This document shows positions 27,010-51,646 of a DNA stretch of 64,000 nt, piece after piece; position 1 is the stretch's first letter, and every line of letters begins with the position of its first letter. Origin of the DNA: a virus; UHGV virus genome UHGV-1430452, one strand, 5' to 3'. Both the position numbers and the translations under genes were made by a program. Under the pieces are notes generated by a model. That model ran no database searches, was not told the DNA's origin, and saw only the letters and a program-made list of their open reading frames with translations.

Positions 27010-27318
27010 TTACATCTTGTGTGAAATCTCCTCGCAATGCTTTTCCAATGATTTGATTCGTTCTTCGTGACCCTGATTTTGAATTTTCAGCTCGTCTATT
27101 TCAGATCCATGATTCGTAACCCGAGTCTTCAAGTTATTAATCATCTCGGTCAAGAAGTTTATAGTCGCGTTGAGTTTGATTATGTTTTCGTTTAGCTTTT
27201 CGATAGGCTCATTTTTAGAATGTTCTTCCTGAGTAATATCCTTCCTCAGTTTCATATAGAAAGCGAACACTGAGCCTATGACTGTTAAGACAATGATTAT
27301 AACTTGATTCTCTGCCAT
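27010..27318 (-). CDS. XhlA-like membrane/coiled-coil lysis accessory protein
   Basis: It has an N-terminal TM (VIIIVLTVIGSVFAFYM) and a heptad coiled coil, and sits directly downstream of the holin. Confidence 0.5.
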   Translation of the reverse strand: MAENQVIIIVLTVIGSVFAFYMKLRKDITQEEHSKNEPIEKLNENIIKLNATINFLTEMINNLKTRVTNHGSEIDELKIQNQGHEERIKSLEKHCEEISHKM

Positions 27319-27320
27319 AG

Positions 27321-27614
27321 TTATTTTTCCTTCGCTGTATTATTATCGTCTTTCTTACCTTCTACAAATCTACTAAATCCCTGATGTAGACCTGTAGATG
27401 CCAGACCCATAACTGCACCATATACGATGGAATCGACAGAGATGCCGCTTACTGCCGTATTCAATGCTGCGCCGACAACAGCCAGGATGACTGGAATATC
27501 GTCGTTAGGGATACGTTTTAAAAAAGTCGCATGTTTGATGATATATCCAACCACCAGACAAGCGACCATTACTACAAGTACGAAATGTTCAGTTAAAATT
27601 TTTGCGAAATCCAT
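27321..27614 (-). CDS. Holin (97 aa; hydrophobic segments plus a charged C-terminus)
   Basis: Hydrophobic segments HFVLVVMVACLVVGYII, IPVILAVVGAALNTAV and IVYGAVMGLASTGL, then KKDDNNTAKEK. It lies at the end of the tail-fibre cluster. Confidence 0.7.
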   Translation of the reverse strand: MDFAKILTEHFVLVVMVACLVVGYIIKHATFLKRIPNDDIPVILAVVGAALNTAVSGISVDSIVYGAVMGLASTGLHQGFSRFVEGKKDDNNTAKEK

Positions 27615-27638
27615 TTTGAATTACCTTCCTTTCTTTTA

Positions 27639-28274
27639 CTAATTAACTTTTTCCCATCCAGCAGGATATGCCTCAGGGGAGTACACGTTGTTATCGATAA
27701 GTGAAACGTACTTCTCGTTATTGAATGTTATCTTATCTCCCTTTTTATATGCCGTCTCAGCGTTGATCGGCTGTTTAAATTCTGGATACTCAACGTTAGG
27801 ATCTGAGATTTCAACATACAAGGACGGAGAAACATCCGGCTTCCATTCTTCAGTAGATGTGAACGGATCTGACGCGACAACCTTATAGAATTTATCCTGA
27901 TAGATAAAGCGATCTCCTTTGCTATATGTAACTCCCACAACATATTCCGGATACATATATCTCATAATATAAGCATCTTTGTCAGAAGCTTGTTTAAGTG
28001 TAAGATCGAACTGCAACTCTTCAAGTTTCTTAGTTCCTTCTTCGATAGCTGCTTCTTTTTCTTTTTCTTTCAGGATATTATTGTAATGCTCTTCGTCATA
28101 AACTAGATGGTATTTCTTATCCTCTTCGTTAAGTTTCAAAGCATAACAATGTAATTTGGAAAGATCCACAACAGTATCATCGAGAATCGCACAAATATAA
28201 TTATTGCGTAATTGACGAAGAGAAATGTTAGTTATCTCTCCATTGACGTTTTCCGCTTCAACATAAACATTCAT
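27639..28274 (-). CDS. Hypothetical protein with two CBM5/12-like carbohydrate-binding motifs
   Basis: YSKGDRFIYQDKFYKV....W.P and YKKGDKITFNNEKYVS...P..YPAGWEKV resemble Y..GD.V.Y.G..Y......P....W. Confidence 0.4.
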   Translation of the reverse strand: MNVYVEAENVNGEITNISLRQLRNNYICAILDDTVVDLSKLHCYALKLNEEDKKYHLVYDEEHYNNILKEKEKEAAIEEGTKKLEELQFDLTLKQASDKDAYIMRYMYPEYVVGVTYSKGDRFIYQDKFYKVVASDPFTSTEEWKPDVSPSLYVEISDPNVEYPEFKQPINAETAYKKGDKITFNNEKYVSLIDNNVYSPEAYPAGWEKVN

Positions 28275-28290
28275 TGCTCATCACCTCCCC

Positions 28291-28626
28291 TTAAACATCA
28301 ACAGCCCCCGTATAGGAAGGCTGAGTTTTTAACCAATCGTATGCATTTTGAATTAGATCGCCTATAAGTAGTTTCTGAGCCTCATCCCATTCAATGCTAA
28401 GATAATCCATGTTGGTGTATGGAAAAGATGGCTCTCCTATGATTCTACCAGCCATATAATCCTTATCGTATTGACGACCTTCTTTATCAATGTACGATTC
28501 TACAATAATAGTAGCTCGCTGATTAATTTCTACGTTAATGGCGGCAATATGATGATAGCTTACTACTACACCATTAGCGGTTTTAATGTTTACTTCTATA
28601 GCCAAAATATCACTCCTAAACTCCAA
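28291..28626 (-). CDS. Putative tail-fibre assembly/chaperone-like protein, paralogue of 31069..31350
   Basis: Both small genes sit directly after a fibre gene. They share ..YH.I..I......I.V.SYID......AY.(W/Y)LKT.P.(Y/F).GA.D(V/I) at the C-terminus. Confidence 0.45.
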   Translation of the reverse strand: MEFRSDILAIEVNIKTANGVVVSYHHIAAINVEINQRATIIVESYIDKEGRQYDKDYMAGRIIGEPSFPYTNMDYLSIEWDEAQKLLIGDLIQNAYDWLKTQPSYTGAVDV

Positions 28627-31048: not shown

Positions 31049-31068
31049 ATAACATCACTGTCCTTTCT

Positions 31069-31350
31069 CTAAATATCTGTAGCTCCCTCGAATTCAGGAA
31101 GTGTTTTAAGATACTCATATGCAAGTTCAATTGTCATATTAGGACTATAATCTGTCTCATAAGTCTTGCTCTTTTTATAAGCAACAGAATCGAATGTGTC
31201 TTTTTCGTCATTCCTTGCATGTTCATCAATGTATGAGAGAACCGCTATGGAATTCTGCCGATTGATTGTCGACTGAATAAATAAGATTCTATGATAGTTT
31301 GTAGTAACGCCGTCCAGTTGTTTAATAGCTTTACATAATGCCATAATCAT
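31069..31350 (-). CDS. Putative tail-fibre assembly/chaperone-like protein, paralogue of 28291..28626
   Basis: See 28291..28626. It sits directly after fibre gene 31359..33143. Confidence 0.45.
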   Translation of the reverse strand: MIMALCKAIKQLDGVTTNYHRILFIQSTINRQNSIAVLSYIDEHARNDEKDTFDSVAYKKSKTYETDYSPNMTIELAYEYLKTLPEFEGATDI

Positions 31351-31358
31351 CAGTCTCC

Positions 31359-33143
31359 TTAACTAAAAGTAATCTTTCCGTCCCAATATATACCAATAGC
31401 ATCATTGTTTGTTACATTTGTTGTGTTAGTAAAAACTACTTTAATATAAACACCAACTCCATATGTAGCGTACGTATCATATGAATCGGGTTTCACATAA
31501 ACAGAAGCAGCCGATCCGTGTGTATACTTAGTGTTCTGCCTTAATACAAAACCGTCCAAACTGGTAGCCGTTGCAGTTGGTGATCCTATTATTGGTTTTG
31601 ACATAGGAACCCAGAATGAAATATCTCTGCCGGAATTAGTCACATAACCAGCAGTTCGTAATGTTATCGAAATGGTATCTCCACGCGAATAATATGGTTT
31701 GTATGTACCTGGACTAGCCAAGTCACTAATACCAAATGTTATGTTATGACCATAAATATTCGTGTTGCCCGTTCTAGCATCCCAGTTTCCATACCCGACA
31801 ATAGTATTACCATATTGGTTCTGAGCCTGGAATGCTTCGTGATAAGTCCCATCGGTAGCATTTTTAGCTATAATGGAATTCGGAGAATCCAGAACCACAT
31901 CTTGCCTAAAATAAGCTTTATAATTAACATCAAAAGCGTCATTTAACTCAGCTGGTTTACCAATTGATACACCTTTTCCTCCAGCTTTAAAGTCGATAGG
32001 AAATCTAGCACCACCAAGAGTTTTCTTAACCGATGTAGTACCATTCTTACTATCAGTTACTTTAATTGTGAATTCATAAGATTTATCAACGTTTAACGCA
32101 TTATCTCCTACTACTACAGAAGCGCTTCCACTATTACCAGATGCAGAGATGGTTTTCGTGTTGGTCAACCATGACACAGTTACTGATGTTACCGGGTTTG
32201 ATCCGGTTAACTGACTACAAGACCAATTAAATGTAATCTTACAATAAGTTCCGGTTTCCTGTGTCGTACCGCTTGAATTACAACGAGTAACTTTCACGCT
32301 TGATATAGTTGGAGGCTTATACGCAAGTTCCCATACAGCGTAAAGAGTAATAGCAGCATTTGAAGTATAGTTAGCTCCTGCCGCATAAGCTACAGCACCT
32401 GTCGCAGACTTAGCCCAACCTTTAAAGTTATAGTTCGTCCTGGTAGGTTTAGTAGTTGATAATTTAAGAGTTACACCGTACGTTTTCGTTTGCTGTGCAG
32501 GTGCTCCACTTCCTCCGTTAGCATTATAAGTAACTTTGTAAGTGATAGCCTGCCATACCGCATAAAGAGTAACACTCGCATTTGCTGTATAACTTGCCCC
32601 AGCAGCATAAGCCACACCCCCAGTAGAAGATGTGGCCCAACCTTTAAATGTATATCCTGTTCTCGTAGGTTTTGTAGACGATAATGTAATGTTTGTTCCA
32701 TGCCATTTTGTCTGTTGAGATGGAGCACCTGAACCTCCGTTTGCGTTATAACTAATCTTATAGGAAGTTTTAGCCGCAACCGAGATCGATCCACTGGCAG
32801 TCTTAGTTCCAGCGTAGGTTCCGCTCCATGTGAAATTCATTTCAAAGGAGAACCACAAAGCGATAGATCTTGCTGATGTTCCCTTTGTAATAGTTACGGT
32901 TCCACTTGTAATTGTCTGAGAACTTTTACCACCTATGGAGAATGTTCCAGATTTAACAACTTTACCATCTATTTTGACACTGTAATTTTTCGCAACGCTA
33001 GAGTTAACAGTATATCCATGAGTTACCCATTTGAGTGTCCAAGAAAGTGTGGCAGTGGTTGCAGTACTACTTGACTGAGTTACTACAAGTTGAACCTGCG
33101 GACAGGATGAACTACCAAATTGTGCCGTTGTTAAAGTTGCCAT
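31359..33143 (-). CDS. Tail fibre / receptor-binding protein with two Listeria-Bacteroides (Flg_new/InlB-B-type) repeats
   Basis: Y(K)ISYNANGGSGAP.QQTK..G....LS.TKPTR.GY.FKGWA.S.TG.VAYAAGA.YT.NA..TLYAVW occurs twice. Confidence 0.7.
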   Translation of the reverse strand: MATLTTAQFGSSSCPQVQLVVTQSSSTATTATLSWTLKWVTHGYTVNSSVAKNYSVKIDGKVVKSGTFSIGGKSSQTITSGTVTITKGTSARSIALWFSFEMNFTWSGTYAGTKTASGSISVAAKTSYKISYNANGGSGAPSQQTKWHGTNITLSSTKPTRTGYTFKGWATSSTGGVAYAAGASYTANASVTLYAVWQAITYKVTYNANGGSGAPAQQTKTYGVTLKLSTTKPTRTNYNFKGWAKSATGAVAYAAGANYTSNAAITLYAVWELAYKPPTISSVKVTRCNSSGTTQETGTYCKITFNWSCSQLTGSNPVTSVTVSWLTNTKTISASGNSGSASVVVGDNALNVDKSYEFTIKVTDSKNGTTSVKKTLGGARFPIDFKAGGKGVSIGKPAELNDAFDVNYKAYFRQDVVLDSPNSIIAKNATDGTYHEAFQAQNQYGNTIVGYGNWDARTGNTNIYGHNITFGISDLASPGTYKPYYSRGDTISITLRTAGYVTNSGRDISFWVPMSKPIIGSPTATATSLDGFVLRQNTKYTHGSAASVYVKPDSYDTYATYGVGVYIKVVFTNTTNVTNNDAIGIYWDGKITFS

Positions 33144-34516
33144 TATGAATCACTTCCTTTCCAAATGAGACCCATGTTACCGTTACTGCGCTCTGCAAAT
33201 GCAAATCCGCCAAATGCTAATTCATCCTCAACTTCTGCTTTTCCGATTTTTAACGATTGGTTAGTTACATATGCCGGGACGGTTGTACCATCCATGAATT
33301 TTATAGCTGTATTGGTGATTAGAACTTTAAACGAACTCTCATTTCCAAGCTCAATGCACGGTTCGTCTCCATCAGTTGTGATTCGAATATAATTCGTTAA
33401 CTCTTCCAAACCTGTCACAGCATTTTCCAATGCAGTGATATCTCCACCTTGAGCGTCAATATCATTCTCCAAAGACTTTATTCCATCAATAGCATTCTGT
33501 AATTGAGTTAAAGTCTCACCCATAGAAAATATCCATCCACTTGATGTTTGCTCCATTAACGAAGCTCCGCTACCGTCAACAACCATGGTAGATATTGAAT
33601 CAGCTATCTGTGAAATCCTAGATTCTGCTTGTTCGATACGTTCAGTCAATCTATCGGCTGCATCTTGAGCAGCATTTTCCGCTGCTTCTAAGCCATTAGA
33701 TGACGCTAAATCTTCCGGAGCCGGTGTCCAGTCGGTTGCTTTGTTTCCGAGTTCGAATTTAACATTTCGAATTTTGCAACCTACCTGTGTTGGACAATAT
33801 ATCTCTATTTTGTTACTACTAATCAAGTCAGTTCCTTCTTCTCCTTTATCAGCAACGGTAATGTCCAATTCTTGATGTACCCAAGTAGTTCCAACAGCCT
33901 GGATTGAATTGTTTATAGTCATTACATATCTGGGTGTTCCGTTCGTATTATATACATTGCAAGTTGTACTTCCGTTTGGACTAACGATATCAAAACTCAT
34001 TTTGACTTTTTCCCCAACGAAGTTACTCATAGGAACTGTCAGATTATAAAATTGTGAAAAAGAACCTGTATCTTGATATGTTGCTAAGACATATTCATTA
34101 TTTTCATCAAATGGTAAACCACTACGACCATCACCATCATAATCAACGTCTCTTGTTCCGAAATAGTTTCTTCCTCCTATTTCAAGTCCGTCAATCTTAT
34201 TATTAGTGCTATTCGCAGTGTTCTGTGCATTAACCGCTTTGTTGTATGCCTGCTTCGCCGCTTCATACGAGCTCGATTTCGAAACTGACGAATATCTAAA
34301 ATTCCCATTTGTAAATACAGTACAATCCACGAAATATAAAGTATTAGTAGATCCAGCACTGTATGAAGGTTCCGTCAATGACCAATTACCGCCTGGCGGA
34401 TTACTTGTGGGTTTGGCCGGGATGTTGGTAGTAGACGATTGTAACAGATAATATCGAGTTACAGATTCTATATCAACGATATGGGATATTGTTATCTCGG
34501 CCTTCCCCCTAATCAT
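33143..34516 (-). CDS. Tail fibre/baseplate-associated protein with central coiled coil
   Basis: The N-terminal KAEITISHIVD motif is shared with the two neighbouring fibre genes. It has one PPGGNWSLTEP module and a heptad-rich C-terminal third. Confidence 0.55.
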   Translation of the reverse strand: MIRGKAEITISHIVDIESVTRYYLLQSSTTNIPAKPTSNPPGGNWSLTEPSYSAGSTNTLYFVDCTVFTNGNFRYSSVSKSSSYEAAKQAYNKAVNAQNTANSTNNKIDGLEIGGRNYFGTRDVDYDGDGRSGLPFDENNEYVLATYQDTGSFSQFYNLTVPMSNFVGEKVKMSFDIVSPNGSTTCNVYNTNGTPRYVMTINNSIQAVGTTWVHQELDITVADKGEEGTDLISSNKIEIYCPTQVGCKIRNVKFELGNKATDWTPAPEDLASSNGLEAAENAAQDAADRLTERIEQAESRISQIADSISTMVVDGSGASLMEQTSSGWIFSMGETLTQLQNAIDGIKSLENDIDAQGGDITALENAVTGLEELTNYIRITTDGDEPCIELGNESSFKVLITNTAIKFMDGTTVPAYVTNQSLKIGKAEVEDELAFGGFAFAERSNGNMGLIWKGSDS

Positions 34517-34526
34517 ATTAAGCTCC

Positions 34527-35651
34527 TTACTGCTCTAACTGAGCGGTATAAACTACAGAATTAGTAACCTCAGCCGCTGATACGCTCAATGTCTTACTGG
34601 TTTTAATTGCTGTAGTTGATCCCTGTTTATACCATTTAATACTTCCAAGAGATCCGCATACTCCGGCGTCCGTGATTGACTGTTCAATAGCGCCTTTAAA
34701 TACATGAGCTGTTAATACAGTAGAGCCGGAATTGTTCTTAAATATAGTTCCGTTTGAGGAAGTAATGGTAATTGTAATAGCATCAGCTCCAGCATTACCC
34801 TGAGCACCTGTTGCTCCATGAGTTCCGATGATTGCTGGAGTAGAAGAAGCTGTCTGACCATTTGTATATGTAGTCTTCTGATATGACCAAATATATTTGT
34901 TTGTTGTTGTAGTTGCTGTCGGTGTAGTTGACCATCCACTTGTAGATGTAGTCACTCCACTTGATGCGGATGTTGTAAGGTAGAAAGTTTCAACCTTCGA
35001 TATGCCATTACCTGTAGCACCTGTCTGACCTGTAGCTCCTGTTGCCCCATGAGTACCAATAATGACAGGTGTGGTTGTGGTCGGAGAACCTGTAGTATAC
35101 GAAATTTTCTGATAACTCCACAAATATTTGTTAGTTGTTGTAGTGGACTGCATTGATGTTGTCCATCCGGTAGTAGAAGTAGTAACACCAGAAGGAGATG
35201 ATGAAGCCAGGTAGTAGGTTTCAACTCCCGTAATACCTTTTCCCGGAGATCCAGTAGCTCCTGTCTGTCCAGTTGCTCCTGTCTGCCCCTTCATCGCTAC
35301 CGCAAACGAGAACTTCTTATTTACGGTGATTCCATCCACTACTACAGGTATTGTAGCCTCACAAGCTTCTGTAATTGCAGCTGTTGTTGTGAATGTTATT
35401 TTCACGGCTGATGTTCCACTGTTTGCCACAGATGCACTAATTCCTTCTGGACAAGTTATATTAGCTGCTGTAACACTAACCGATGAACACTGATTTGTTC
35501 CGCAGAATGCAACAGCTTCTGTAGTACAAGTCAGACCAGTAGCTGTACCGCTAGTACCTCCAACAAAAGTGTAAGCTTCACTAGTTAACATGACTGAATA
35601 CGCGTCTGTAACGTCTATAATCGTAATCTGATCAGCTGATCTAATTGCCAT
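34527..35651 (-). CDS. Tail fibre-like protein with short G-X-Y runs and two W..S...T..KY(L/I)WSYQK modules
   Basis: GQTGATGQTGATGSPG and GATGATGQTGATG; a duplicated ~70-aa module; N-terminal SADQITIIDV motif. Confidence 0.6.
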   Translation of the reverse strand: MAIRSADQITIIDVTDAYSVMLTSEAYTFVGGTSGTATGLTCTTEAVAFCGTNQCSSVSVTAANITCPEGISASVANSGTSAVKITFTTTAAITEACEATIPVVVDGITVNKKFSFAVAMKGQTGATGQTGATGSPGKGITGVETYYLASSSPSGVTTSTTGWTTSMQSTTTTNKYLWSYQKISYTTGSPTTTTPVIIGTHGATGATGQTGATGNGISKVETFYLTTSASSGVTTSTSGWSTTPTATTTTNKYIWSYQKTTYTNGQTASSTPAIIGTHGATGAQGNAGADAITITITSSNGTIFKNNSGSTVLTAHVFKGAIEQSITDAGVCGSLGSIKWYKQGSTTAIKTSKTLSVSAAEVTNSVVYTAQLEQ

Positions 35652-35669
35652 TTTGATTTTCCTCCCTTA

Positions 35670-37244: not shown

Positions 37245-37250
37245 TAAATA

Positions 37251-38309
37251 TCACCCCCATAATTTAGTTGTAAATACAGCTTTCTCTGTAACTGGACATC
37301 CAGGCTCACATTTGATAGATTGACTAACAACTTTGGCTTTTATGTTACTTATTCCAGCTCGTTTATAGTTAAGACGTACACAATCATTTAACCGTACAGG
37401 ACAATACGCGTGAGTATATGTCACCGTATATTCAAGGCAGGACACTTCACGGAGTAATTGCTCTGCATATTTTTGAATCTGTGATTCGGTCGGTATACCT
37501 GACAAGCTAGGATTAGTCACTCGATGTAAAATCTCTCGACCGCGATTGATAGTAGAAGTTGGACTATTTTCGTCGTCATTAACTGCCCTACCGTAATAAA
37601 TATCGTTAGCGTCAGAGTATACTACCTCAACAACATTCGGTATTCCGTACAGATCATGATTTACTGTTATCTCAGGATACAAGATAGAACTATTATTATC
37701 ATCATAGGTATGAACAGGTTGCAAAGAGGCCGTATCCTGATCGGGAGCGAAAAGAATACGACCTAATTCGTCTAAACTAAGTTTATATTTTGCATTTGAT
37801 ATCAAATCCGAAGTAAATGTTATCCAAGTATCATCCGTGTTTGCTACAAAATCGTTATATAATTCAGTCTCATTGTCTGCTTTTATAACTGGTGCTCTTA
37901 CGTTGTCACGACATATCTGATAGGCCATTTTCATGATGTTCTCGCCTTTTAATATGGAATATCCAAGAGGTGGTGGATTCTCCTTTAACTCAATCAGTGG
38001 TGTGTAAGCGTCAAGAGTGTTGTCTTGTTTCTTACCGTCGAATGATGAGGATGGGGTTTGAACTAAGTAAGTGCCTAGAGGATGTTTCTCAGTTAATCCA
38101 TTTTGAATCGTAATGAGATAAACCCTCACATAGCACTCACCGATAGTTTCCGTAATATCTAATGTAGCTGATCCAAGTGTTTCAGCCCCTGAGTCTCTGG
38201 AAATAGAACACGATTTCACGGTATCTATTCGTTTCATATCTTTCCATGTGCCTGGATCGACTATATAGTATTCAAATGTCTGTTCCATCGACTTAGTCCA
38301 ATCTGGCAT
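37251..38309 (-). CDS. Tail-associated (Tal/baseplate-hub-like) protein
   Basis: ORF track 37251..38327; ATG at 38309 after GAAGGAGGTATCTGAT. The call rests on its position after the Dit-like gene. Confidence 0.5.
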   Translation of the reverse strand: MPDWTKSMEQTFEYYIVDPGTWKDMKRIDTVKSCSISRDSGAETLGSATLDITETIGECYVRVYLITIQNGLTEKHPLGTYLVQTPSSSFDGKKQDNTLDAYTPLIELKENPPPLGYSILKGENIMKMAYQICRDNVRAPVIKADNETELYNDFVANTDDTWITFTSDLISNAKYKLSLDELGRILFAPDQDTASLQPVHTYDDNNSSILYPEITVNHDLYGIPNVVEVVYSDANDIYYGRAVNDDENSPTSTINRGREILHRVTNPSLSGIPTESQIQKYAEQLLREVSCLEYTVTYTHAYCPVRLNDCVRLNYKRAGISNIKAKVVSQSIKCEPGCPVTEKAVFTTKLWG

Positions 38310-38310
38310 A

Positions 38311-40890: not shown

Positions 40891-40894
40891 TAGC

Positions 40895-43800
40895 TTATAT
40901 CCTCCTTTCTATCACGGCTGCTCTTACAATTTCTTTAACAGCTTCTGTAATATTGCTTCCATCATCATAAGTAAGACCGTTAATGTTATATGAAACACCA
41001 CCAACATTACCTAAGTCTTTACGAAGTCTGTTTATTGCTGAAACAACATCATCCATAGATCCATTTTGAATTCTTTCACCCATCATAGAATTTATGGTGT
41101 TTAGTCTTGACATTACTCCCAATGTAGGAGTTCCATTCAACATGCCGTTAATTGCACTAGCTCCAGATTTAATATCAGACAAATCAAGGACTGGTCTTAT
41201 TGTCGGCTGAGTGTTGATATCTCCGTCAAGAAGACTCGAAATTCTCGACATTGCTGTTTGAGTACTGTTAACAGCGTTATCGGACATTCTAGAAATAGAT
41301 TGTTTCACTAATCCTCCGAACATACCGATACCCTTAGCAAATCCAATAGGAACATATGAACCTATTTTCATGAACACCCTTGAAGGTGAATGAATAGCAA
41401 GATTAGCCCTAGCTGCTGCCGATGCTGCCGCTGCCATTGAAGCTGCTGCATTTGCCGCCGACCAAATGTTCGCTTGAATACCTGCTACAAATCCGCTAGC
41501 TACATAAGATCCAGAACTATAAAAGCTTGAATAATATCCTCTAGTAGAAGATACTGCTGAAGACAATATCGACGTTGTTGTGTTCACAACACTTGAAGCT
41601 CTACTTCGCATACCGTTTACGAATTGTGTCATTAAAGCAACGCCATTAGTTCCAAATACGGATCTTTTACTGCTAATAGCTTTAAGCATCGAGTTGATAA
41701 TATTGGTAGCTGTTGATGTTACCAATGCTTGTTTTGATTTCAAACCATTAGAGAAAGATGTAATTAAGTTCGATCCAATGTTCGACATCTTAGACGTTGA
41801 ACCACTAAATGATTTAGTAATACTATTCATAGAAGTTTGACCCAAAGTAGATACAGCAGTTTTAAACGATGCTACGCCGCTTGTGTTAAGTCCGGCCAAA
41901 CTACTAATAAAATTCTTAATCTTAGTAGCCGCTGTTATAGAGCTAGATATTGATCCGACATTTATACCTGCAACAGAATCAGAGTAACTTTTTAAAGTAC
42001 TTCCGATAGTTCCTATCTTAAAGTTTGAAACTCCACTAGAATCCAAACTTGATAGTCCCTGAATAAAAGTCTTTAATCTATTTGCCGCAGTAACAGAAGA
42101 TGTAACTTTACCAGAGTCCACATTTTCAACCGACTTAGAGTAGCTCTTCAAAGTAGTTCCAATAGATCCTATTTTGAAGTTACTAACACCACTACTATCC
42201 AATCCCGTAAGACTTGATACAAAATTTCTAAGTCTATTTGCTGATGATATGGATGATGAGACTATACCCGGGTCCATATCTTTAACGGAGTTTCCGTAGT
42301 CCTGCATAGCCTTACCTATGGAATTAATCTTGAAGTTTTCAATACCGCTTGTATCAAGACCCACCAGACTAGCTATTAAACTCTTAAGTCTTAAAGCTAC
42401 TGAGACTGCTGTGTTTACTTTAGCGATATCGATATCGGCTACAGATTCTCCGAACTTACCTATAGCCTGTCCAATATTAACCAAATGACCGTCTCCGGCT
42501 CCAACACCTGCAAAGCTACTAACACCACTTGCATCGAGATCGGCTAAAGCGGTAATCAGGTTTTTAATCCTATAAGCGGCTGTTATGGCGGTGTTTATAC
42601 CATCAGAGTTTATGTTTGCAGCGTCTGTTGAGAATGTAGTCATGGCCGAGCTGAATTTTTCGACGTATTTTGAGAATTCCTCAAGATTCATCTTACCGTC
42701 AAACCAGCCTTCTTCTGGAAGGGCTTCTTGAAGAGCTATAATAGCGCTACCTGCATTCGTTACGGATGTTACGACTGCTTCCGATATACCGTCCTCTCCC
42801 ATTCCGGTTTTAAGTTTGCCCATAGCTGTAGCAAATTGACCTATGTTTTCGCCAAAAGTTCCTAAGTCATCTTTTCCGGTAAACCAGTCGATTACTCCTC
42901 CCATATTCTCAAGAGAAGATTGTAATCCAGCAAGTTTAGTAGCCGCATTTATAATAGAAGTAATTGAATCATCATCTATTTTTGTATCTCCTAAATCGGC
43001 AAAAGCAGTTTTCATCGATCCCATAAAGCTAGCGACACTAGACCCAAAAGTCCCTAAGTCGTCCCTTCCAGTGAACCAGTCAACCACTCCTCCTATATTT
43101 TCAAGCGATGACTGCAAGCCTGATAATTTAGTAGCTGCGTCGATGATTATGCCGATTGCTTCGGTATTTATTTTGACTCCGTCTAAGCTTGAAAATGCTT
43201 TTGTCATAGATCCTATAAATAGACCTATATTTACACCAAATGTGCCGAGGTCGTCTCTACCTTTAAACCAGCTTATTACTCCACCTATTGGTTCGAGTGC
43301 TGACTGCAATCCTGCTAATTTAGTTGATCCATCGATAATGGTAGTCAAAGCTTCAGAATTAAATTCAACACCATCAAGACTCTGAAAAGCAGTTTTCATA
43401 GAGAATATAAATTGAGCTACGTTTGTTCCAAAAGTTCCAAGATCATCTCTACCTTTAAACCAACTTATTACTCCGCCTATAGGTTCCAATGACGATTGTA
43501 AATTAGCTAGAATAGTAGTAGCACTTATTATTGCGGTTAATCCTTCTGTGTTTAAAGTAATTCCTTCTAGATCAGAGAACGCAACTTTCATGGAAGATAT
43601 GAATTCTCCTACACTTTCTCCAAATGTGCCGAGGTCGTCTCTACCTTTAAACCAGCTTATTACTCCGCCTATTGGTTCAAGGCTAGATTGAAGTTTACTC
43701 AGTTCAGCAGCTCCAGTAATGATCGATGTTAAAGCTTCCGTATTGAAGGATACTCCGTCAAGACCTAGAAAAGCATTCTTCATTGAGAATATAAATTGAC

Positions 43801-46800
43801 CGACGTTAGTTCCGAAAGTCGCGAGGTCATCCCTGCCAGAGAACCAATCCATAACACCGCCTATAGGCTCCAATGACGATTGTAATTCGCTAAGTTTCGT
43901 TGCTACATTTATCACAGCGCCCATTGCCGCCTCGTCTATTGTGATTCCAGCAGAAGCTTGCGATATCGCTTTCATAGCATTGAAGAACGCAACACCATCG
44001 GTCTCAAACTTCTCCATAGAAGTACCACCGAGAGTGAATATGTCAGCGATAGAAGTACCAACTGTTGTAAATCCTATCTCTGCCATAGCACTCATTAAAT
44101 CGGACACGCCATCGAAAGATCCTGATTTAATACCACTAGCATTTTCGCTTGCTATAGCTAGTTTGTCCATGAAATCAGCAATATTTTGACCTATTTCCGG
44201 TAAACTTCCGGTAATACCTTCTCCGATTCCTCCTATGAATGCTCCGATTCCTTTGCCGATTGCGTTTCCTATTTTTCCTAATAATCCACCGCCAGCTTCA
44301 ACAAGGGACGAAAAACCTGGAATTTTAGATAACCCACCGATTGCTGCCAGAAGTACTGCTATCTCAGCTATTACAGCACCAACGGCTAATACTCCGGTCA
44401 TTGCTGGGCCGGCTAAAGCTCCAGCTCCGGCGAATACTTTCATCAATATTCCGATTACTCCGAATGCACCTATGCCTTTTAGCATAGTATCCATATCTAA
44501 ATTGCCTATCGAATCGACGATACCTTTGACAACTTGTCCGACAAAATTCATTATTGCCGATATTAATTCTGGAGTATGCTCGGCAAGACTATTAATAACT
44601 CCGATTATAAAACCGAGAAGTGAATCGACAATCTGTGGTGCATACTGTTCTAATGCGTCTAAAACGCCTAAGAGCAGTTTCAGAAAACTTTCAGCCAATT
44701 GAGGTGCATATTCTCCTATAACTTTTGCGATTTCGACGATACCTCGACCTATTACTTCAGCAATTTGTGGAATCAATCCTAAAATACCGGTGATTATAAC
44801 TGTTATTGATGCGACAAGCGCTGTGGCACCAGCAGTTCCAGCAGTAGCAAGAGCTGTGAATCCAGCTGATAGAGCAAGTATACCAACGCCAATTCCAGCT
44901 ATAGCTACAGCAAATATAGCCATCGCAGCGGATAAACCAAGTATTGCCGGAGTGAGTGGACTCAGAAGAGCTCCAGCTACTCCTATTACTACAAAGGCTC
45001 CAGCAAGAGTTACGAGACCTTTTACTATGCTCTCCCAACTCATAGATCCTAATGATTTCAATACAGGTGTTAAAATTGCTAATCCAGCAGCTGCAACAAC
45101 TAATGCGGCAGACCCCTTAAGAGATCCACTCATGGCTTTTAATCCAATAGATAGCTCGACCAAAGCTATTCCAAGTACAACGAGTCCTTTTCCTATACTC
45201 TCCCAGCTCATCGATCCTAATGATTTTAAGACTGGAGTTAATATAGCAAGTGCTGACGCCATCAAAAGCATTTGACCGCCGAACTTAGCGATAGATCCAC
45301 TACCCTTGCTCATAATTTTAGAAGCTAACACCAGCATTGTAACAATACCTAATATTCCAGCTCCACCTTTAGCTAATTCGTTCCAACTCATAGAACCCAA
45401 ACTCTTACCAACAGCAGCCAAAATGCCAACCGCAGCTGACATGATAAGCATCTGTCCAGCAAATTTGGTTATAGACTTACTTTCAGTATTCATGAGTTTG
45501 GCAGCACCAACTAATATAGCGACTATTCCTAATATTCCGGCCCCACCTTTGGCTAATTCTTCCCAACTCATTGAACTGAGAATTTTAGCGACTCCAGATA
45601 ACGCTGCTATTGCTGCTGATAATATAAGCATCTGTCCAGCAAATTTGGTTATAGACTTACTTTCGGTATTCATAAGTTTAGCAGCCGCGACGAGTATAGC
45701 TACCATTCCACCAATACCAACGAGGCCTTTTGCTACACCGTTCCAATCAAGTCCAGCTATAATTTTCATAGCGCCTGCTAATATAAGAATAGCTGCTCCG
45801 AGTCCAATCATCTGAACAGTTCTAGCTATACCTGACAAACTTGATACTATACCAGATAAAGGTTTGACACTTTTGCTGTTTATTTTTTCAAGCACTGCTA
45901 ATGCAGATATCAACTCTACAAACAAACCGCCTATTGCGCCTAAAGAACTTCCGAGTTTATCCTCGTCTATTCCAGATATGACAAAAAGAGCCGCTGCCAG
46001 TATTCCAATAGCACCCGCTATTTTTAGCAATGTTCCGGCTTTAAGATTCTGTTGCCATGATTCCAAACTTCCCTTAACGCCATCAAGTATTTTTTTAACG
46101 TTATCTAAGAAACTTATTTTTTCGAATGGATCAGATAATCCTTTAATAAAGTTTCTTATGGCTAGTAATATTCCAGCAAACAATCCGCTGTTTAATACTT
46201 CGAAAATATCGCCTTTACCAAAGGCATCGGCTATCATATTACCTATATCGGAAAAAGCTTCTCCGATGGCCGCGCCAACCGACTTTATAGTGTTCCATAG
46301 ACCGGAAAAGAAGCCAAGAAAACCTTGAAGTGTAGGAGAAATCTTAAAACTCTCAATAAGTGAGCGTCCAAACTCTGCTATTTTTGAAATCCCGTTGCTA
46401 AGAAATCCAACAATTTTATCAACTGCGTCGCCAAACAGATTTCCTTCTACTATGGAGTCTCTCACATTCGAGATAAAATCTCCAAAAGAACTCGTTGCAT
46501 CCAGTATTCCTCCACCAAGTCCGGTGAAGTTTCCAATAATATCTAGAGCGCCTTTTCCAACAGCTTTAAAAGCCTCTATAACAATATCGATAGCGGAAAA
46601 GATTCCTTTAAATGTAGATTTTATTTTAGATGCAGCGCCTTCACTTACTTTTAAAGTATCAGTGAAAGCTTTGAATCTATCAATCATACTTACTACTTGG
46701 TCGACTGTAGTAGGTGGAAATATCTCTCTAAAAGCTTCTTTTATCGGTTTTATTATATCTCCAAGGAATTTGAATATATTTTTCAAACCCTCTATAATTT

Positions 46801-48442
46801 TTTCTCTACCGCCAAGCTCGGTTATTCCATCGATAAGACCATCTATGTTGTCTTTTAATTTATTCGTAGATTCGTTTGCTTCATTTAGCGCTTTTAATGT
46901 AGCGTCATCAACGATACCTGTTATTTCTAAATCGTTAGCTTCCTGAAAAGCTTTAATAGCTGACTCTGTGGCACTTCCGAAAATTCCATCAGCACCAGAA
47001 TCGCCAATATCATAGTTAAGGCTTTGTAATGCTTTTTGTACTTTTGTTACGTCGTCTCCTGTATTACCTTTCGATAAACCGGCTTCGACTCCACTTAAAT
47101 CTACAAGTTCGCCTTTTAATCCGCTAACAGCTTCTTTTAAAATATCAGAAGATATGGCACCAGATTGAAAAGCTTTTTCTAGAGAACCATATTTTTTTAT
47201 GATCTCGTCCATATTAACGCCATGGTCCTCAGCAATCGATCTAACTTTTTCCTCAAAAGTATCGGTTTCTACACCAGCTTCATTTATTTTTTTTACAAGC
47301 TTATCCCAGTTAGAAGACATCGCGCCTTCCAATAATTCGTTACGAGATTTCGCTGATGATTCAACCATCTTTCCAATGGTATCTGAAATTCCAGTGAACA
47401 ATTCTTTGGAGTCTTCAAAATCACCGACAAGTATTCTCCAAGTTTGACCCCATCCAGATTGGAGAGATTCTTTTACCGTATCTATCAGCTGTGTGAATGT
47501 TTTTACTTTTGTAGCAGCGTCTTCAGCGTCCTTCGCTAAAGCCATAATATCGTTTGCTTGAGATTCGCTATAACCTTGGGCAATAAGATCGGCCTTACTA
47601 TATGCGCCAGACAATTGGTTAAGAGTTTCAGTTAATACCTCGGTCGTTAACCATTCACCTTTTGTTAGGCTTTCTCTAAAGCTGCCATATGTATCAATAG
47701 CTTGTTTAGCGCCTGTTCCCAAAAGTTCAGACGTTCTAACAAGTGCGTCCTGAAATACCTTACCACCCATACCGGCATTAACAACTGAGTTCCAGTCCAT
47801 AAGACTAACTTTACCTGCCGCCAATGCCTGAGAAAGCTGATACATCGCAGTAGATGCCTGTTGAGAAGTTGATCCAGAAACTGCGGCCAAGTTCGCAATA
47901 CCTTTAATAGCATTAACTGAGGTATCAAGTTTTACACCAGCTGCTGTAAACGTACCGATATTACGAGTCATTTCCGTAAAATTGTAAATCGTCTTATCGG
48001 CATATGTATTTAGCTCATCTAAAGCCTTATTTACAATATCAACATTAGTGCCTTCCTGCCTTGTATTGGATAGAATTGTCTGAATAGCACCAATCTGAGT
48101 TTCGTATTCTTGGAAACCGCTTTTAACCGGATCTATAGTTAATGCTGATATCATACGTTTACCAGTGTTAACAGCCTGGTTAGTGATGTTTGCTAAAGCA
48201 GTTACACCAGCGACCTGTAGTGCTGAAAATTTAGCCTGAACTGTCTCTATACCACTGCTCATTCCTGCAAAGCTAACACCTTTAGCAGCCTTACCGACAT
48301 TCTCCAACCCTTTGGAGGCACCAGATAGATTTAACTTTTGTTTGAGCTTATCGAGAGTTGACATACTGGTTGCGACTCCGCTCTCAAACTGCTTATTGTC
48401 GAACCGCATCTCCAAGACTCTGTTGTCAATAGTCGTACTCAT
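40895..48442 (-). CDS. Tape measure protein (2515 aa) with multi-TM core and three internal repeat families
   Basis: The call rests on size, position, the N-terminal TMP-like region, long Ala/Gly/Ile-rich hydrophobic stretches and the repeats annotated separately below. Confidence 0.85.
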   Translation of the reverse strand: MSTTIDNRVLEMRFDNKQFESGVATSMSTLDKLKQKLNLSGASKGLENVGKAAKGVSFAGMSSGIETVQAKFSALQVAGVTALANITNQAVNTGKRMISALTIDPVKSGFQEYETQIGAIQTILSNTRQEGTNVDIVNKALDELNTYADKTIYNFTEMTRNIGTFTAAGVKLDTSVNAIKGIANLAAVSGSTSQQASTAMYQLSQALAAGKVSLMDWNSVVNAGMGGKVFQDALVRTSELLGTGAKQAIDTYGSFRESLTKGEWLTTEVLTETLNQLSGAYSKADLIAQGYSESQANDIMALAKDAEDAATKVKTFTQLIDTVKESLQSGWGQTWRILVGDFEDSKELFTGISDTIGKMVESSAKSRNELLEGAMSSNWDKLVKKINEAGVETDTFEEKVRSIAEDHGVNMDEIIKKYGSLEKAFQSGAISSDILKEAVSGLKGELVDLSGVEAGLSKGNTGDDVTKVQKALQSLNYDIGDSGADGIFGSATESAIKAFQEANDLEITGIVDDATLKALNEANESTNKLKDNIDGLIDGITELGGREKIIEGLKNIFKFLGDIIKPIKEAFREIFPPTTVDQVVSMIDRFKAFTDTLKVSEGAASKIKSTFKGIFSAIDIVIEAFKAVGKGALDIIGNFTGLGGGILDATSSFGDFISNVRDSIVEGNLFGDAVDKIVGFLSNGISKIAEFGRSLIESFKISPTLQGFLGFFSGLWNTIKSVGAAIGEAFSDIGNMIADAFGKGDIFEVLNSGLFAGILLAIRNFIKGLSDPFEKISFLDNVKKILDGVKGSLESWQQNLKAGTLLKIAGAIGILAAALFVISGIDEDKLGSSLGAIGGLFVELISALAVLEKINSKSVKPLSGIVSSLSGIARTVQMIGLGAAILILAGAMKIIAGLDWNGVAKGLVGIGGMVAILVAAAKLMNTESKSITKFAGQMLILSAAIAALSGVAKILSSMSWEELAKGGAGILGIVAILVGAAKLMNTESKSITKFAGQMLIMSAAVGILAAVGKSLGSMSWNELAKGGAGILGIVTMLVLASKIMSKGSGSIAKFGGQMLLMASALAILTPVLKSLGSMSWESIGKGLVVLGIALVELSIGLKAMSGSLKGSAALVVAAAGLAILTPVLKSLGSMSWESIVKGLVTLAGAFVVIGVAGALLSPLTPAILGLSAAMAIFAVAIAGIGVGILALSAGFTALATAGTAGATALVASITVIITGILGLIPQIAEVIGRGIVEIAKVIGEYAPQLAESFLKLLLGVLDALEQYAPQIVDSLLGFIIGVINSLAEHTPELISAIMNFVGQVVKGIVDSIGNLDMDTMLKGIGAFGVIGILMKVFAGAGALAGPAMTGVLAVGAVIAEIAVLLAAIGGLSKIPGFSSLVEAGGGLLGKIGNAIGKGIGAFIGGIGEGITGSLPEIGQNIADFMDKLAIASENASGIKSGSFDGVSDLMSAMAEIGFTTVGTSIADIFTLGGTSMEKFETDGVAFFNAMKAISQASAGITIDEAAMGAVINVATKLSELQSSLEPIGGVMDWFSGRDDLATFGTNVGQFIFSMKNAFLGLDGVSFNTEALTSIITGAAELSKLQSSLEPIGGVISWFKGRDDLGTFGESVGEFISSMKVAFSDLEGITLNTEGLTAIISATTILANLQSSLEPIGGVISWFKGRDDLGTFGTNVAQFIFSMKTAFQSLDGVEFNSEALTTIIDGSTKLAGLQSALEPIGGVISWFKGRDDLGTFGVNIGLFIGSMTKAFSSLDGVKINTEAIGIIIDAATKLSGLQSSLENIGGVVDWFTGRDDLGTFGSSVASFMGSMKTAFADLGDTKIDDDSITSIINAATKLAGLQSSLENMGGVIDWFTGKDDLGTFGENIGQFATAMGKLKTGMGEDGISEAVVTSVTNAGSAIIALQEALPEEGWFDGKMNLEEFSKYVEKFSSAMTTFSTDAANINSDGINTAITAAYRIKNLITALADLDASGVSSFAGVGAGDGHLVNIGQAIGKFGESVADIDIAKVNTAVSVALRLKSLIASLVGLDTSGIENFKINSIGKAMQDYGNSVKDMDPGIVSSSISSANRLRNFVSSLTGLDSSGVSNFKIGSIGTTLKSYSKSVENVDSGKVTSSVTAANRLKTFIQGLSSLDSSGVSNFKIGTIGSTLKSYSDSVAGINVGSISSSITAATKIKNFISSLAGLNTSGVASFKTAVSTLGQTSMNSITKSFSGSTSKMSNIGSNLITSFSNGLKSKQALVTSTATNIINSMLKAISSKRSVFGTNGVALMTQFVNGMRSRASSVVNTTTSILSSAVSSTRGYYSSFYSSGSYVASGFVAGIQANIWSAANAAASMAAAASAAARANLAIHSPSRVFMKIGSYVPIGFAKGIGMFGGLVKQSISRMSDNAVNSTQTAMSRISSLLDGDINTQPTIRPVLDLSDIKSGASAINGMLNGTPTLGVMSRLNTINSMMGERIQNGSMDDVVSAINRLRKDLGNVGGVSYNINGLTYDDGSNITEAVKEIVRAAVIERRI
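41850..42560 (-). repeat. TMP repeat family 2: ~49-aa units (...L.GLD(S/T)SGVSNFKIG(S/T)IG..LKSYS.SV...), 4-5 copies
   Basis: Seen in the translation and as recurring DNA blocks. Boundaries are approximate. Confidence 0.7.
42650..43900 (-). repeat. TMP repeat family 1: ~63-aa units centred on LQSSLEPIGGVISWFKGRDDLGTFG, 6 copies + 1 degenerate
   Basis: Near-identical DNA blocks, e.g. gtgccgaggtcgtctctacctttaaaccagcttattactcc at about 43241 and 43621. Boundaries are approximate. Confidence 0.8.
44990..45800 (-). repeat. TMP repeat family 3: hydrophobic ~55-60-aa units each containing SMSWE(E/S)(L/I).KG, about 5 copies
   Basis: The translation shows SMSWEELAKG, SMSWNELAKG, SMSWESIGKG and SMSWESIVKG plus LDWNGVAKG. 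Boundaries are approximate. Confidence 0.7.
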
Positions 48443-48816
48443 ATCTTAGTAACCTCCCTCCAGGCCTCTTCTGCCATTTTGTCAAAAATAGGCTGAATCG
48501 CAGGATTGATATAATCTCTCCCTTGAACCCAGCCTCCAGTACCAGTCCCATGACCATATTGCAAAATAATAGCGATTGGTACACCTTTATTAATGTTAGA
48601 GTTTGTAAAAGTAATCTTTGCTGATCCGGATGTATTCTCAATTTCGTATCCCCACGATTTAGCAGTCAATCCAGATTCTACAGGAGTAGCAGACATAAGA
48701 GCAGCCACCCCTTCCCGACCATATTTGTCGAGTACGCTGAGCTTTGCATTCCCTTTAAGTTTCTCAAAATATCGAGTAACTTTAGAGAAGTCTCCCTTAT
48801 GTCTGAAACTAATCAT
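48439..48816 (-). CDS. HK97 gp10-family tail-component protein
   Basis: MISFRHKGDFSKV...LDKYGREGVAAL...TPV.SG.TA.SW.YE......A.I...N....G.PIAI.LQYGHGT matches the gp10 pattern. Its stop overlaps the TMP start. Confidence 0.6.
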   Translation of the reverse strand: MISFRHKGDFSKVTRYFEKLKGNAKLSVLDKYGREGVAALMSATPVESGLTAKSWGYEIENTSGSAKITFTNSNINKGVPIAIILQYGHGTGTGGWVQGRDYINPAIQPIFDKMAEEAWREVTKI

Positions 48817-48831
48817 TTTGATCTTTCTCCT

Positions 48832-50550
48832 TTACAGTAGCTCGTTAACTCGATCCTGAATTTTCTGAATCATGTTGTGATCGTATCCAGCTTTTGCGAG
48901 GGCATTAATTCGTGCATCTCCATTACCGTATTTTCCGGCAATGACATCACGGGCTACATTATCAATCACTATCTGATTTACTTTCTTCTGCACAGTGTCT
49001 GGATTATAACCAGCTTTCTTGAGAGCAGACACACGAGCATCACCATTACCCCATTTTCCAGCTAAAACCTCTTTAGCTACTTCATCGATAGATTTAGTAG
49101 GTTTTGCAGGAGCTTTAAGTAGTTCATTCACTTTCTTCTGTACAGTGTCTGGATTATAACCAGCTTTCTTGAGAGCAGACACACGAGCATCACCATTACC
49201 CCATTTTCCAGCTAAAACCTCTTTAGCTACTTCATCGATAGATTTAGTAGGTTTTGCAGGAGCTTTAAGTAGTTCATTCACTTTCTTCTGTACAGTGTCT
49301 GGATTATAACCAGCTTTCTTGAGAGCAGACACACGAGCATCACCATTACCCCATTTACCGGCGATTACTTCTTTAGCAATTTCATCGATAGATTTGGTCG
49401 GTTTTGGCGTAGATGTAGGTTTAGATGTTGGTGCTGGTGTGGAAGAACTTTTCGCATATTTTGGTCTAGCAAAACCACGAATCATACCCCAGCCAACCGG
49501 AATGGTACGTCTTGCTACTGCTTCTCCTCTGTTACCTTCAATCGCTGTGATTTGTCCGTTTGAAACAGATTCCACATACCCGATATGATCAGAATATCCG
49601 TCGTTTGGCTGAGTCTTATCATCCCAGTTATAAACAATTACATCACCAGGTTTCGGAGTAATGGTGCCGTCCTCGACCCAAATGCCTTTCTGCTTAAAAA
49701 TCTTAATATGTTCCTCACAACCAACTTCTGTACCGATGAGATCGACTGCTCCGGATTTGATAGCTGCTGCTGATACTGTACAATCACACCATTCATCATT
49801 AGGTTTAATAGCGTATCCGCGAGCCAAAGGTTTGTGAGAATTATAGATGTTAAGAATCTCAATATATTTACCGTTAGCTTCAGAATAACCGAGCCAACTT
49901 CTCATAACATTAAGAACGTCCTGTGCTGTTACACCCAATTCCGTATCCTCCTGTTTTCCGTAAAAATAGTTCATGTCGACTTTACCTTTAATACCGCCTA
50001 CAGTTCCGGAACTCGTATACTGATGAACCAAACAACCGTAATCTGCTTTTCCGTTATAATCAGCGAGCCAGAATTTGTACTGTTTAATCAGATCATGATT
50101 ATACCAATTTCGATAGTAGTCGATATTTGCGTAGATTCCAGCTTTGTATCCCTGAGATTCTACGTACTCACAAAAGATTCTTGTAAAGTTATTACATTCA
50201 TTTTTACCAAGTCTCACACCTTTTGCAGCTGCTTTCTTGACTGTGTCATATTCGAAATCTGCGAAGATGATTGTGTTTTTATCAAGACCAGCTTTTCTAA
50301 CAACATCAACACAGAATTTTGCTTCGTCAAGTGCGCCCTGTTCGTTTAAGGCATAAATAAAATGGTAAGTTCCTATAATCGGAATCTTGTTGTTTTTACA
50401 CCCATTGACATACTCATAGAATTTTGAATCTACTGTCTTCCTGTAAGAAGATCTAAGAATCGCGAACTCTATTCCGGAGGACTTGACTTTAGAAAAATCT
50501 ACATCTCCCTGCCAATAGCTGATATCAATTCCTTTCTTCACAATCATCAT
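48832..50550 (-). CDS. Peptidoglycan hydrolase: GH25 muramidase + NlpC/P60-or-CHAP-like cysteine peptidase + 4 CW_7 (Cpl-7) cell-wall-binding repeats
   Basis: The N-terminal GIDISYWQGDVDFSKVKSSGIEFAILRSSY is GH25-like. The centre has WCDCTVSAAAIKSG...DHIGYVESV...IEGN. The C-terminus has 4x SIDE(I/V)AKEV(I/L)AGKWGNGDARVSALKKAGYNPDTVQKKVN. Confidence 0.85.
   Translation of the reverse strand: MMIVKKGIDISYWQGDVDFSKVKSSGIEFAILRSSYRKTVDSKFYEYVNGCKNNKIPIIGTYHFIYALNEQGALDEAKFCVDVVRKAGLDKNTIIFADFEYDTVKKAAAKGVRLGKNECNNFTRIFCEYVESQGYKAGIYANIDYYRNWYNHDLIKQYKFWLADYNGKADYGCLVHQYTSSGTVGGIKGKVDMNYFYGKQEDTELGVTAQDVLNVMRSWLGYSEANGKYIEILNIYNSHKPLARGYAIKPNDEWCDCTVSAAAIKSGAVDLIGTEVGCEEHIKIFKQKGIWVEDGTITPKPGDVIVYNWDDKTQPNDGYSDHIGYVESVSNGQITAIEGNRGEAVARRTIPVGWGMIRGFARPKYAKSSSTPAPTSKPTSTPKPTKSIDEIAKEVIAGKWGNGDARVSALKKAGYNPDTVQKKVNELLKAPAKPTKSIDEVAKEVLAGKWGNGDARVSALKKAGYNPDTVQKKVNELLKAPAKPTKSIDEVAKEVLAGKWGNGDARVSALKKAGYNPDTVQKKVNQIVIDNVARDVIAGKYGNGDARINALAKAGYDHNMIQKIQDRVNELL
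48975..49410 (-). repeat. Tandem 150-bp near-identical coding repeats (CW_7 units plus linkers)
   Basis: The blocks at 49111..49260 and 49261..~49350 are identical by eye. The unit beginning at about 48975 is nearly identical. A fourth, divergent unit lies at 48835..48970. Confidence 0.85.
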
Positions 50551-51621: not shown

Positions 51622-51646
51622 TATCGTTATTCCATTACTTAGTTAC

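Follow-up and report, generated by a model that had tools for sequence, protein, structure and literature searches.

A predicted endolysin encoded in the tail module, apart from the holin, in a temperate siphophage related to phages of gut Clostridia

UHGV virus genome UHGV-1430452 was analysed over a stretch of 64,000 nucleotides (the window), the gene content of which is that of a temperate siphophage genome or prophage. At the centre of the analysis stands a protein of 572 amino acids (aa), whose gene lies inside the tail module and 21.2 kb from the holin gene, so that the usual, although not obligatory, linkage of endolysin and holin genes is not found. This protein is predicted, with a probability of roughly 80%, to be the endolysin of a temperate siphophage whose lysis cassette is split. 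In related phages, the position that it occupies between two conserved tail genes (the slot) is the lineage's usual lysis-gene locus, the commonest home of its lysins and a hotspot of cassette exchange. The split arrangement is typical of the lineage and already has precedents, and the protein is a standard modular endolysin. Its lytic activity, its dependence on the holin and its absence from virions are predictions drawn from sequence comparison. An earlier first-pass annotation had allowed two readings, namely an endolysin relocated within the late transcript or a virion-associated lysin accompanied by a lysis enzyme of unrecognised type. The former is supported by the evidence set out below, and the latter is disfavoured.

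The lysin contains three kinds of Pfam domain: Glyco_hydro_25 (GH25) at residues 8-187 (3e-29), CHAP at residues 254-340 (2.8e-8) and four CW_7 repeats at residues 386-572 (1e-73), and all of its PHROG matches above 1e-5 are to endolysin or amidase families. Residues that fit the catalytic motifs, assigned by inspection of the translation without structural alignment, are D9 and D98-x-E100 in GH25 and Cys255/257, His322 and E338-G-N in CHAP. A sequence search of the CHAP region against solved structures returns nothing at E <= 1, and the bond cleaved by this domain therefore cannot be assigned. Sequence prediction detects no signal peptide, signal-arrest-release segment, transmembrane (TM) helix or any hydrophobic segment; nor is there a structural or virion-anchoring domain, as Pfam domains and linkers fill the entire protein. 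The first-pass annotation had described this GH25, cysteine-peptidase and four-CW_7 protein as the only recognisable lysin, and it is indeed the sole peptidoglycan hydrolase in the window at Pfam sensitivity; the whole-window scan covered the remaining open reading frames (ORFs) of at least 90 aa and two 83-aa ORFs, which were concatenated into ten pseudo-proteins and compared with Pfam. Neither Pfam nor PHROG finds a muralytic domain in 27639-28274, 28291-28626, 26362-26913, the tape measure protein (TMP) or the distal tail proteins.

Among characterised enzymes, Cpl-7 (GH25 and CW_7) shares with the lysin the GH25 muramidase and the CW_7 repeats, the solved Cpl-7 repeats (PDB 5i8l) matching its CW_7 region at 6e-33. 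Further points of agreement with Gram-positive modular endolysins of this kind are a second, CHAP-type catalytic domain, the lack of a secretion signal and a holin in the same late array; the present protein differs from them in its GH25-CHAP-4xCW_7 order and in a gene that stands apart from the holin. It can also be likened to the dual-catalytic streptococcal CW_7 lysins of the lambdaSa2 type. Layouts of GH25, CHAP and a wall-binding domain, as well as those of GH25 and CW_7, belong to the common ones among endolysins of human gut phages (PMC13284279).

A tandem array with a period of 150 bp (48976-49406, minus strand; 2.9 copies, 95% matches) codes for the CW_7 units. In contigs of other samples, whose identity to the window is 99.8-99.95%, the lysin alleles are of 522 and 472 aa; exactly one or two CW_7 units are missing from them, and the remainder is identical (L210:3417-4985 and L211:3567-4985). 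These alleles represent either a real copy-number polymorphism of CW_7 or repeat collapse in short-read assembly. An exact-protein look-up of the 572-aa lysin gives no match because the alleles of close relatives have three or two CW_7 repeats.

The lysin gene is enclosed in a block of five genes that is opened by the major tail protein (MTP) gene and continues with the tail assembly chaperone (TAC) gene, the phrog_4338 gene, the slot, the phrog_5 gene and the TMP gene. The features of this region are as follows:

51647-52312, minus strand: major tail protein (MTP) gene (phrog_2645 major tail protein, 3e-106)
51595-51622, minus strand: terminator-like hairpin, 12 bp stem followed by T9, directly 3' of the MTP gene
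51137-51550, minus strand: tail assembly chaperone (TAC), 137 aa (Phage_TAC_17, 1.6e-37; phrog_4282)
50547-51107, minus strand: conserved phrog_4338 gene, 186 aa, the upstream border of the lysis-gene slot (7.8e-75)
48832-50550, minus strand: predicted endolysin, 572 aa (GH25, CHAP and four CW_7)
48439-48816, minus strand: phrog_5 gene ('tail completion or Neck1'), 125 aa, the downstream border of the slot (1e-13)
40895-48442, minus strand: tape measure protein (TMP), 2515 aa (Pfam TMP_3, 2.9e-13; PG_binding_1, 1.5e-18)

Coordinates and sequence bear out the earlier description of the lysin gene as lying between the chaperone-position genes and the tape measure region and overlapping its predecessor. 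Its ATG overlaps the stop codon of the upstream gene (50547-51107) in an ATGA that can be read directly, the downstream gene begins 15 nucleotides (nt) past its stop and itself overlaps the start of the TMP gene, and a sequence scan places no promoter-like or terminator-like site on either side of it. Such integration into the operon supports the assignment as an endolysin.

Megablast searches of the tail-slot and holin regions against approximately 50,000 phage records yielded no match, and comparisons were therefore made at the protein level. The phrog_4338 protein is highly conserved, with 502 relatives in IMG/VR viral contigs, the best 80 of which supplied the IMG/VR loci, and 44 prophage loci in genomes that belong mostly to gut Clostridia. 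Among these are Lachnospiraceae and two cultured lysogens with slot lysins, Hungatella hathewayi DSM 13479 (NZ_CP102274.1, at approximately 219-240 kb) and Cuneatibacter caecimuris DSM 29486 (NZ_SGXF01000005.1). All related loci keep the MTP - TAC - phrog_4338 - phrog_5 - TMP block. A census of the slot was taken over the 110 loci, from viral contigs and genome prophages, that have both the phrog_4338 and the phrog_5 gene, and a peptidoglycan hydrolase was found in the slot of 85-86 of them, with the following occupancy:

Slot empty (6-99 nt): 23 loci, 21%
Slot with a single lysin gene: 49 loci
Slot with a lysin and one to three small ORFs: 36 loci
Slot with unidentified genes: 1 locus

The first-pass annotation had considered the location of the lysin to be the oddity and had proposed a comparison of synteny. 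The census shows that related phages routinely have the same arrangement, with an endolysin role that is likewise predicted, and that the slot is where these phages usually keep a lysin. At an identity of at least 50%, the 85 slot lysins group into 21 clusters. Among 60 large slot proteins, the catalytic domains recognised by Pfam are Amidase_2 (32), GH25 (16), CHAP (12), Amidase_3 (5), Phage_lysozyme2 (2) and ELLD (1), and the wall-binding domains are CW_7 (29), SPOR (10), SH3_3 (10), LysM (5) and PG_binding_1 (3). Such a number of clusters and such variety of catalytic families point to non-orthologous replacement, a pattern often seen at endolysin loci. In its behaviour, the slot is a hotspot of recombination at which non-orthologous lysins, with or without holins of their own, are exchanged among phages of gut Clostridia. 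The small ORFs that accompany the lysin encode proteins of 64-158 aa, nearly all of which have a charged C-terminus and are predicted to contain one to three TM helices, and are termed holin-like on the basis of size, TM helices, charged tails and position.

Individual loci extend this picture. Three contigs combine a slot lysin with a distal holin that has no lysin beside it (L003/L128, L058/L088 and L062/L099), and the first of these is the closest relative and also has the gene for a protein with carbohydrate-binding modules (CBMs) that is described below. One ORF just downstream of a holin block (L092:7306-8346) is 65.6% identical over its full length to a slot lysin (L062:4138-5181), which indicates that the same enzyme family serves in either location. 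The closest deposited relative, MT835495.1 (L001, from human faeces), has a gene with Amidase_2 and SH3 domains in its slot. In the same record, which is marked UNVERIFIED, neither strand has an ORF of more than 140 aa over approximately 5 kb downstream of the fibre gene (32552-37376); the cause may be faulty assembly, recoding or degradation of this stretch.

The replacement by non-orthologous enzymes, the wall-binding domains, the holin-like genes in the same slot, the dispensability of the slot for the tail module and the presence of the same lysin family beside holins are marks of endolysin loci rather than of structural tail components, and together argue that the slot enzyme is an endolysin. 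Several features characteristic of endolysins are present in this case, as the protein has catalytic domains and a C-terminal wall-binding domain, is soluble without a signal sequence or TM helix, and is accompanied by a holin encoded by the phage. Two of those expected of a virion hydrolase are lacking: the enzyme in the slot is not a conserved component of the tail module, given the empty slots, the 21 clusters and at least five catalytic families, and the lysin has four CW_7 wall-binding repeats.

It is very unlikely that the protein is a virion-associated tail peptidoglycan hydrolase that is assembled with the TMP and breaches the cell wall at DNA injection, leaving lysis to an unrecognised enzyme. 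The virion-associated hydrolases of siphophages, which comprise tail-associated lysins and TMP-borne lytic domains, do share with it a gene in the tail cluster and two muralytic domains, and dual-domain enzymes with CHAP plus lysozyme occur among the virion-associated lysins of staphylococcal phages. Its gene immediately precedes those of phrog_5 and the TMP, with probable translational coupling to a gene of the tail module, and the TMP of the window carries a PG_binding_1 module without having a catalytic domain of its own. However, virion-associated hydrolases usually have no dedicated wall-binding domain, whereas this lysin is free-standing and ends in an array of four wall-binding repeats, with no domain that would anchor it in the virion. 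Furthermore, the same tail module is built without it in the 23 relatives whose slot is empty, and elsewhere the content of the slot has been swapped for unrelated amidases or lysozymes, which would be unexpected of a structural component. The holin-like membrane proteins beside the slot lysin in 36 loci, the homologue just downstream of a holin block in L092 and the lack of any alternative endolysin in the window all speak for a function in lysis.

The TMP deserves separate consideration. In the window, its PG_binding_1 module covers residues 461-519, and Pfam finds no catalytic domain in the protein. A peptidoglycan-binding module at approximately residues 350-570 is carried by the TMPs of the lineage, namely PG_binding_1 in that of the window and CW_7 repeats in those of at least five relatives (the TMP ORFs concerned are those of L009, L012, L036, L040, L067, L176 and L180, two of which match slot lysins over unchecked regions), and no catalytic domain accompanies this wall-binding module. 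The possibility that a TMP-borne lysin replaces the slot lysin was considered and rejected, as the BLAST similarity of the window's lysin to the TMPs of some relatives consists of the CW_7 repeats alone. The TMP of the window also contains approximately 17 hydrophobic segments between residues 744 and 1368. In two prophages from a metagenome-assembled genome of Clostridia (L170:19281-20543 and L187:13061-14700), the gene that follows the TMP gene, in the position of Dit, is 48-57% similar to the slot lysin of L058; this similarity would be due either to a wall-binding module common to both, for example LysM, which the corresponding protein of L001 has, or to a catalytic domain.

A very faint chance is assigned to a dual role, in which the endolysin would also be carried in part within the tail, for example through the wall-binding region of the TMP, and would assist entry. 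The positional arguments for it are those already given for a virion hydrolase, to which may be added the persistence with which the lineage puts lysins immediately upstream of TMP genes that encode wall-binding modules. Nevertheless, no domain for interaction or anchoring was found in the lysin, the TMPs of empty-slot relatives are of the same kind, and lysis by itself fully explains the co-located holin-like genes. Even when a virion-associated role and a dual role are taken together, they remain unlikely. A related suggestion, that the lysin is placed before the gene of a wall-binding TMP for a reason other than expression, because a fraction of it is loaded into the tail with the TMP and acts at entry, is held to be highly improbable; if true, a single gene product would be both the endolysin and an ejected enzyme that breaches the wall.

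Several points weigh against the assignment as an endolysin. The position of the gene inside the tail block, together with the peptidoglycan-binding module of the TMP, is the setting expected of an entry-associated enzyme. The small proteins of the slot match no holin family in Pfam, NCBIfam or PHROGs, where they return chance matches to membrane proteins alone. For three phages with an empty slot (L050/L107, L036/L133 and L012/L143), no lysin was found in their fetched loci with a lysin set that covers some families, and the lysin of these phages is either located elsewhere or of a family outside the set used. The complementary distribution of lysin locations is therefore incomplete. Finally, the IMG/VR loci include near-duplicates, and percentages derived from them are approximate.

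If the protein is an endolysin, its expression can be envisaged from the layout of the operon. The absence of promoter-like or terminator-like sites around the lysin gene and the strong hairpin after the MTP gene suggest that the late transcript, attenuated over the stretch from the chaperone gene to the TMP gene, is the probable source of the lysin, with translational coupling to the preceding gene. As a probable result of the hairpin at 51595-51622, the genes for the chaperone, the lysin and the TMP are expressed less strongly than that for the tail tube protein. In the proposed sequence of events, late transcription would proceed through the head and tail genes, with probable attenuation at the hairpin, and translation of the lysin would be coupled to that of the phrog_4338 gene through the ATGA overlap. 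Having no signal sequence, the folded lysin would accumulate in the cytoplasm until a Hol44-type holin, possibly modulated by a bitopic protein of 102 aa, permeabilises the membrane at a set time. The enzyme would then reach the wall, where the four CW_7 repeats would bind peptidoglycan, GH25 would cut the glycan strands and CHAP would cut a stem peptide or an amide bond.

The other part of the split cassette lies at the end of the late array, where the following features are found:

28291-28626, minus strand: small phrog_5084 gene after the last fibre gene, with a likely true start at 28605, which gives 104 aa
27639-28274, minus strand: fibre-like protein of 211 aa with two CBM5/12 modules
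27321-27614, minus strand: holin, 97 aa, Hol44 family (PF16079; phrog_1129)
27010-27318, minus strand: bitopic membrane and coiled-coil protein, 102 aa (TM helix at residues 6-24, then a coiled coil)
26362-26913, minus strand: orphan ORF of 183 aa at the very end of the late strand, without a family match

The holin named in the first-pass annotation is well supported by its match to Phage_holin_5_2/Hol44 (PF16079; 1.2e-11, with a score of 45.1 bits and a cutoff of 29.2) as well as to the phrog_1129 holin family (1.3e-21). It contains two strong hydrophobic TM helices, at residues 11-29 and 42-60, and a charged C-terminus, EGKKDDNNTAKEK. The 102-aa protein, which had been called XhlA-like, is a real ORF, but the name does not hold: its score against XhlA (PF10779) is 20.3 bits, below the Pfam gathering threshold of 34.7, the match covers positions 4-44 of the 67 in the profile, that is, the coiled-coil part alone, and SlyX and other coiled-coil families score at least as high. 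This protein is likely a holin accessory or regulator, a conserved partner encoded downstream of the holin. The two genes end the same-strand late array and, as the earlier annotation had maintained, no peptidoglycan hydrolase adjoins the holin, since Pfam and PHROG find no muralytic domain in its neighbours.

Homologues of the holin are present in 75 viral loci. Most of these resemble the window in having fibre genes, a phrog_5084-like gene, the holin and a protein of approximately 87-144 aa, followed by the end of the late genes without a lysin, and a minority have a lysin after the holin block. A gene for a protein of approximately 87-144 aa occupies the post-holin position in nearly all related loci.

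As faint as the probability of the dual role is that of a further endolysin, of unrecognised type, among the genes next to the holin (27010-27318, 26362-26913, 27639-28274 or 28291-28626), in which case the slot enzyme would be accessory or redundant. Several relatives with an empty slot have a holin followed by small proteins without Pfam matches, and no recognisable lysin in their fetched loci, as this explanation would predict. The candidates themselves offer little room for it, however. The 102-aa protein consists of a TM helix and a coiled coil. The 183-aa ORF has no match in Pfam, PHROG or the PDB and is missing from a close relative (L205:11275-11437) in which the CBM protein is 98% identical and the gene order the same; it could be a moron located at the prophage's end, and the lysis system does not require it. 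The first-pass annotation had named 27639-28274 and 28291-28626 as places where a muralytic domain might be hidden, and none appears there with Pfam, with PHROG or in confident structure models. The model of the CBM protein comprises a small beta N-domain, a long helix at residues 61-95 and the two CBM5/12 modules, and the AlphaFold model of the 104-aa protein encoded by the phrog_5084 gene has no clear structural match. Moreover, empty-slot relatives whose lysins are known keep them elsewhere, near the holin in Faecalibacterium phage FP_oengus and upstream of the head genes in L069, where a lysin-like ORF lies 9 kb upstream of the slot.

A second phrog_5084 paralogue is present in the window, and the two genes (31069-31350 and 28291-28605, minus strand), whose products are 36% identical, each follow a tail-fibre gene. 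Homologues of this family precede the holin in many related phages, and the paralogues may be fibre assembly or accessory proteins.

Endolysin genes that lie apart from holin genes, in varied positions, are well documented in actinobacteriophages, and Klyczek et al. 2017 (PMC5513430) list some upstream of the terminase gene, others between it and the protease gene and others within the tail operon. Phage AWGoat, like the window, has its annotated endolysin gene among the genes for virion structure, upstream of that for the TMP, and the candidate holins, which are small membrane proteins, are likewise distant from it at the left end of the genome; this placement of the endolysin has been described as common in the cluster of AWGoat (PMC11783173, PMC13014141). 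AWGoat differs in that its endolysin (gene 23) is encoded between the MTP and adaptor genes, before the chaperones, and in having a host of another phylum and another lysin, the role of which is likewise predicted. Homologues of phrog_4338 in the Arthrobacter phages Caterpillar and Qui were considered as markers of the same slot and rejected, as the gene there directly follows the MTP gene in another context.

Oengusvirus and Fremauxvirus phages, namely FP_oengus and Lactococcus phage 1706, share the MTP - TAC - phrog_4338 - phrog_5 - TMP block, and the tail-block proteins of FP_oengus are 43-51% identical to those of the window. Unlike in the window, the slot is empty in both phages, with gaps of 6 and 3 nt, respectively. 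In FP_oengus, a gene for a Peptidase_M15 endolysin comes after the tail genes and two genes upstream of the holin; the holin of phage 1706 is encoded at the left end. Orf17 of phage 1706, which corresponds to the phrog_5 gene by position, is annotated as a structural protein.

For annotation, these comparisons imply that a hydrolase encoded between the tail chaperone and TMP genes in this phage group should be read as an endolysin and not as a tail lysin, and that a lone holin at the end of the operon does not denote an incomplete lysis system. The group, which is widespread, is made up of temperate phages whose hosts are gut Clostridia (Lachnospiraceae, Hungatella, Cuneatibacter and relatives). 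Its slot is compact and easy to find and offers a diverse set of endolysins (21 clusters among 85 examples) to those who survey the lysins of gut phages, and a third of the slots also hold uncatalogued holin-like proteins. The understanding of phage lysis itself is unchanged by the finding. Full-text searches retrieved no description of the phrog_4338/phrog_5 slot in phages of gut Clostridia, which leaves its absence from the literature unproven.

The overall layout of the window is that of a temperate phage. All late genes are on the minus strand, where the array from morphogenesis to lysis extends over approximately 26.4-64 kb, and the early and replication genes occupy 1-23 kb on the same strand. 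The two regions are separated by a repressor-like helix-turn-helix gene and a serine-recombinase integrase gene (24071-25657, plus strand). Distal tail and fibre genes span approximately 12 kb between the TMP gene and the phrog_5084 gene at 28291-28626. The head genes of the late array, as assigned by Pfam and PHROG, are as follows:

57490-59223, minus strand: terminase
55254-56525, minus strand: portal
52967-54904, minus strand: protease-capsid fusion (Peptidase_S78, then Phage_capsid)

In the last of these genes, the major capsid protein is fused to the prohead protease domain, an unusual fusion that has also been described for Arthrobacter clusters AM and AU (Klyczek et al. 2017, PMC5513430). 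A homologue of phrog_4338 is likewise present in at least Arthrobacter cluster AU (phage Caterpillar). Upstream of the large terminase gene, four consecutive genes (59267-62630, minus strand) start with a DUF7211 motif (…YGVKGMKWGVRR…), after which their sequences diverge, and a fifth DUF7211 protein is located after the holin block in the relative L104. The early region encodes three paralogous DUF6353 proteins (11374-12312, 14387-15214 and 16675-17451, minus strand; 1e-57 to 1e-89), in each of which an apparent N-terminal hydrophobic stretch can be read from the sequence. Downstream of the integrase gene, two tandem paralogous genes for proteins of 83 aa (25814-26065 and 26062-26313, plus strand), both of which start with MRIVWKDS…, are followed by a terminator-like hairpin at 26323-26346.

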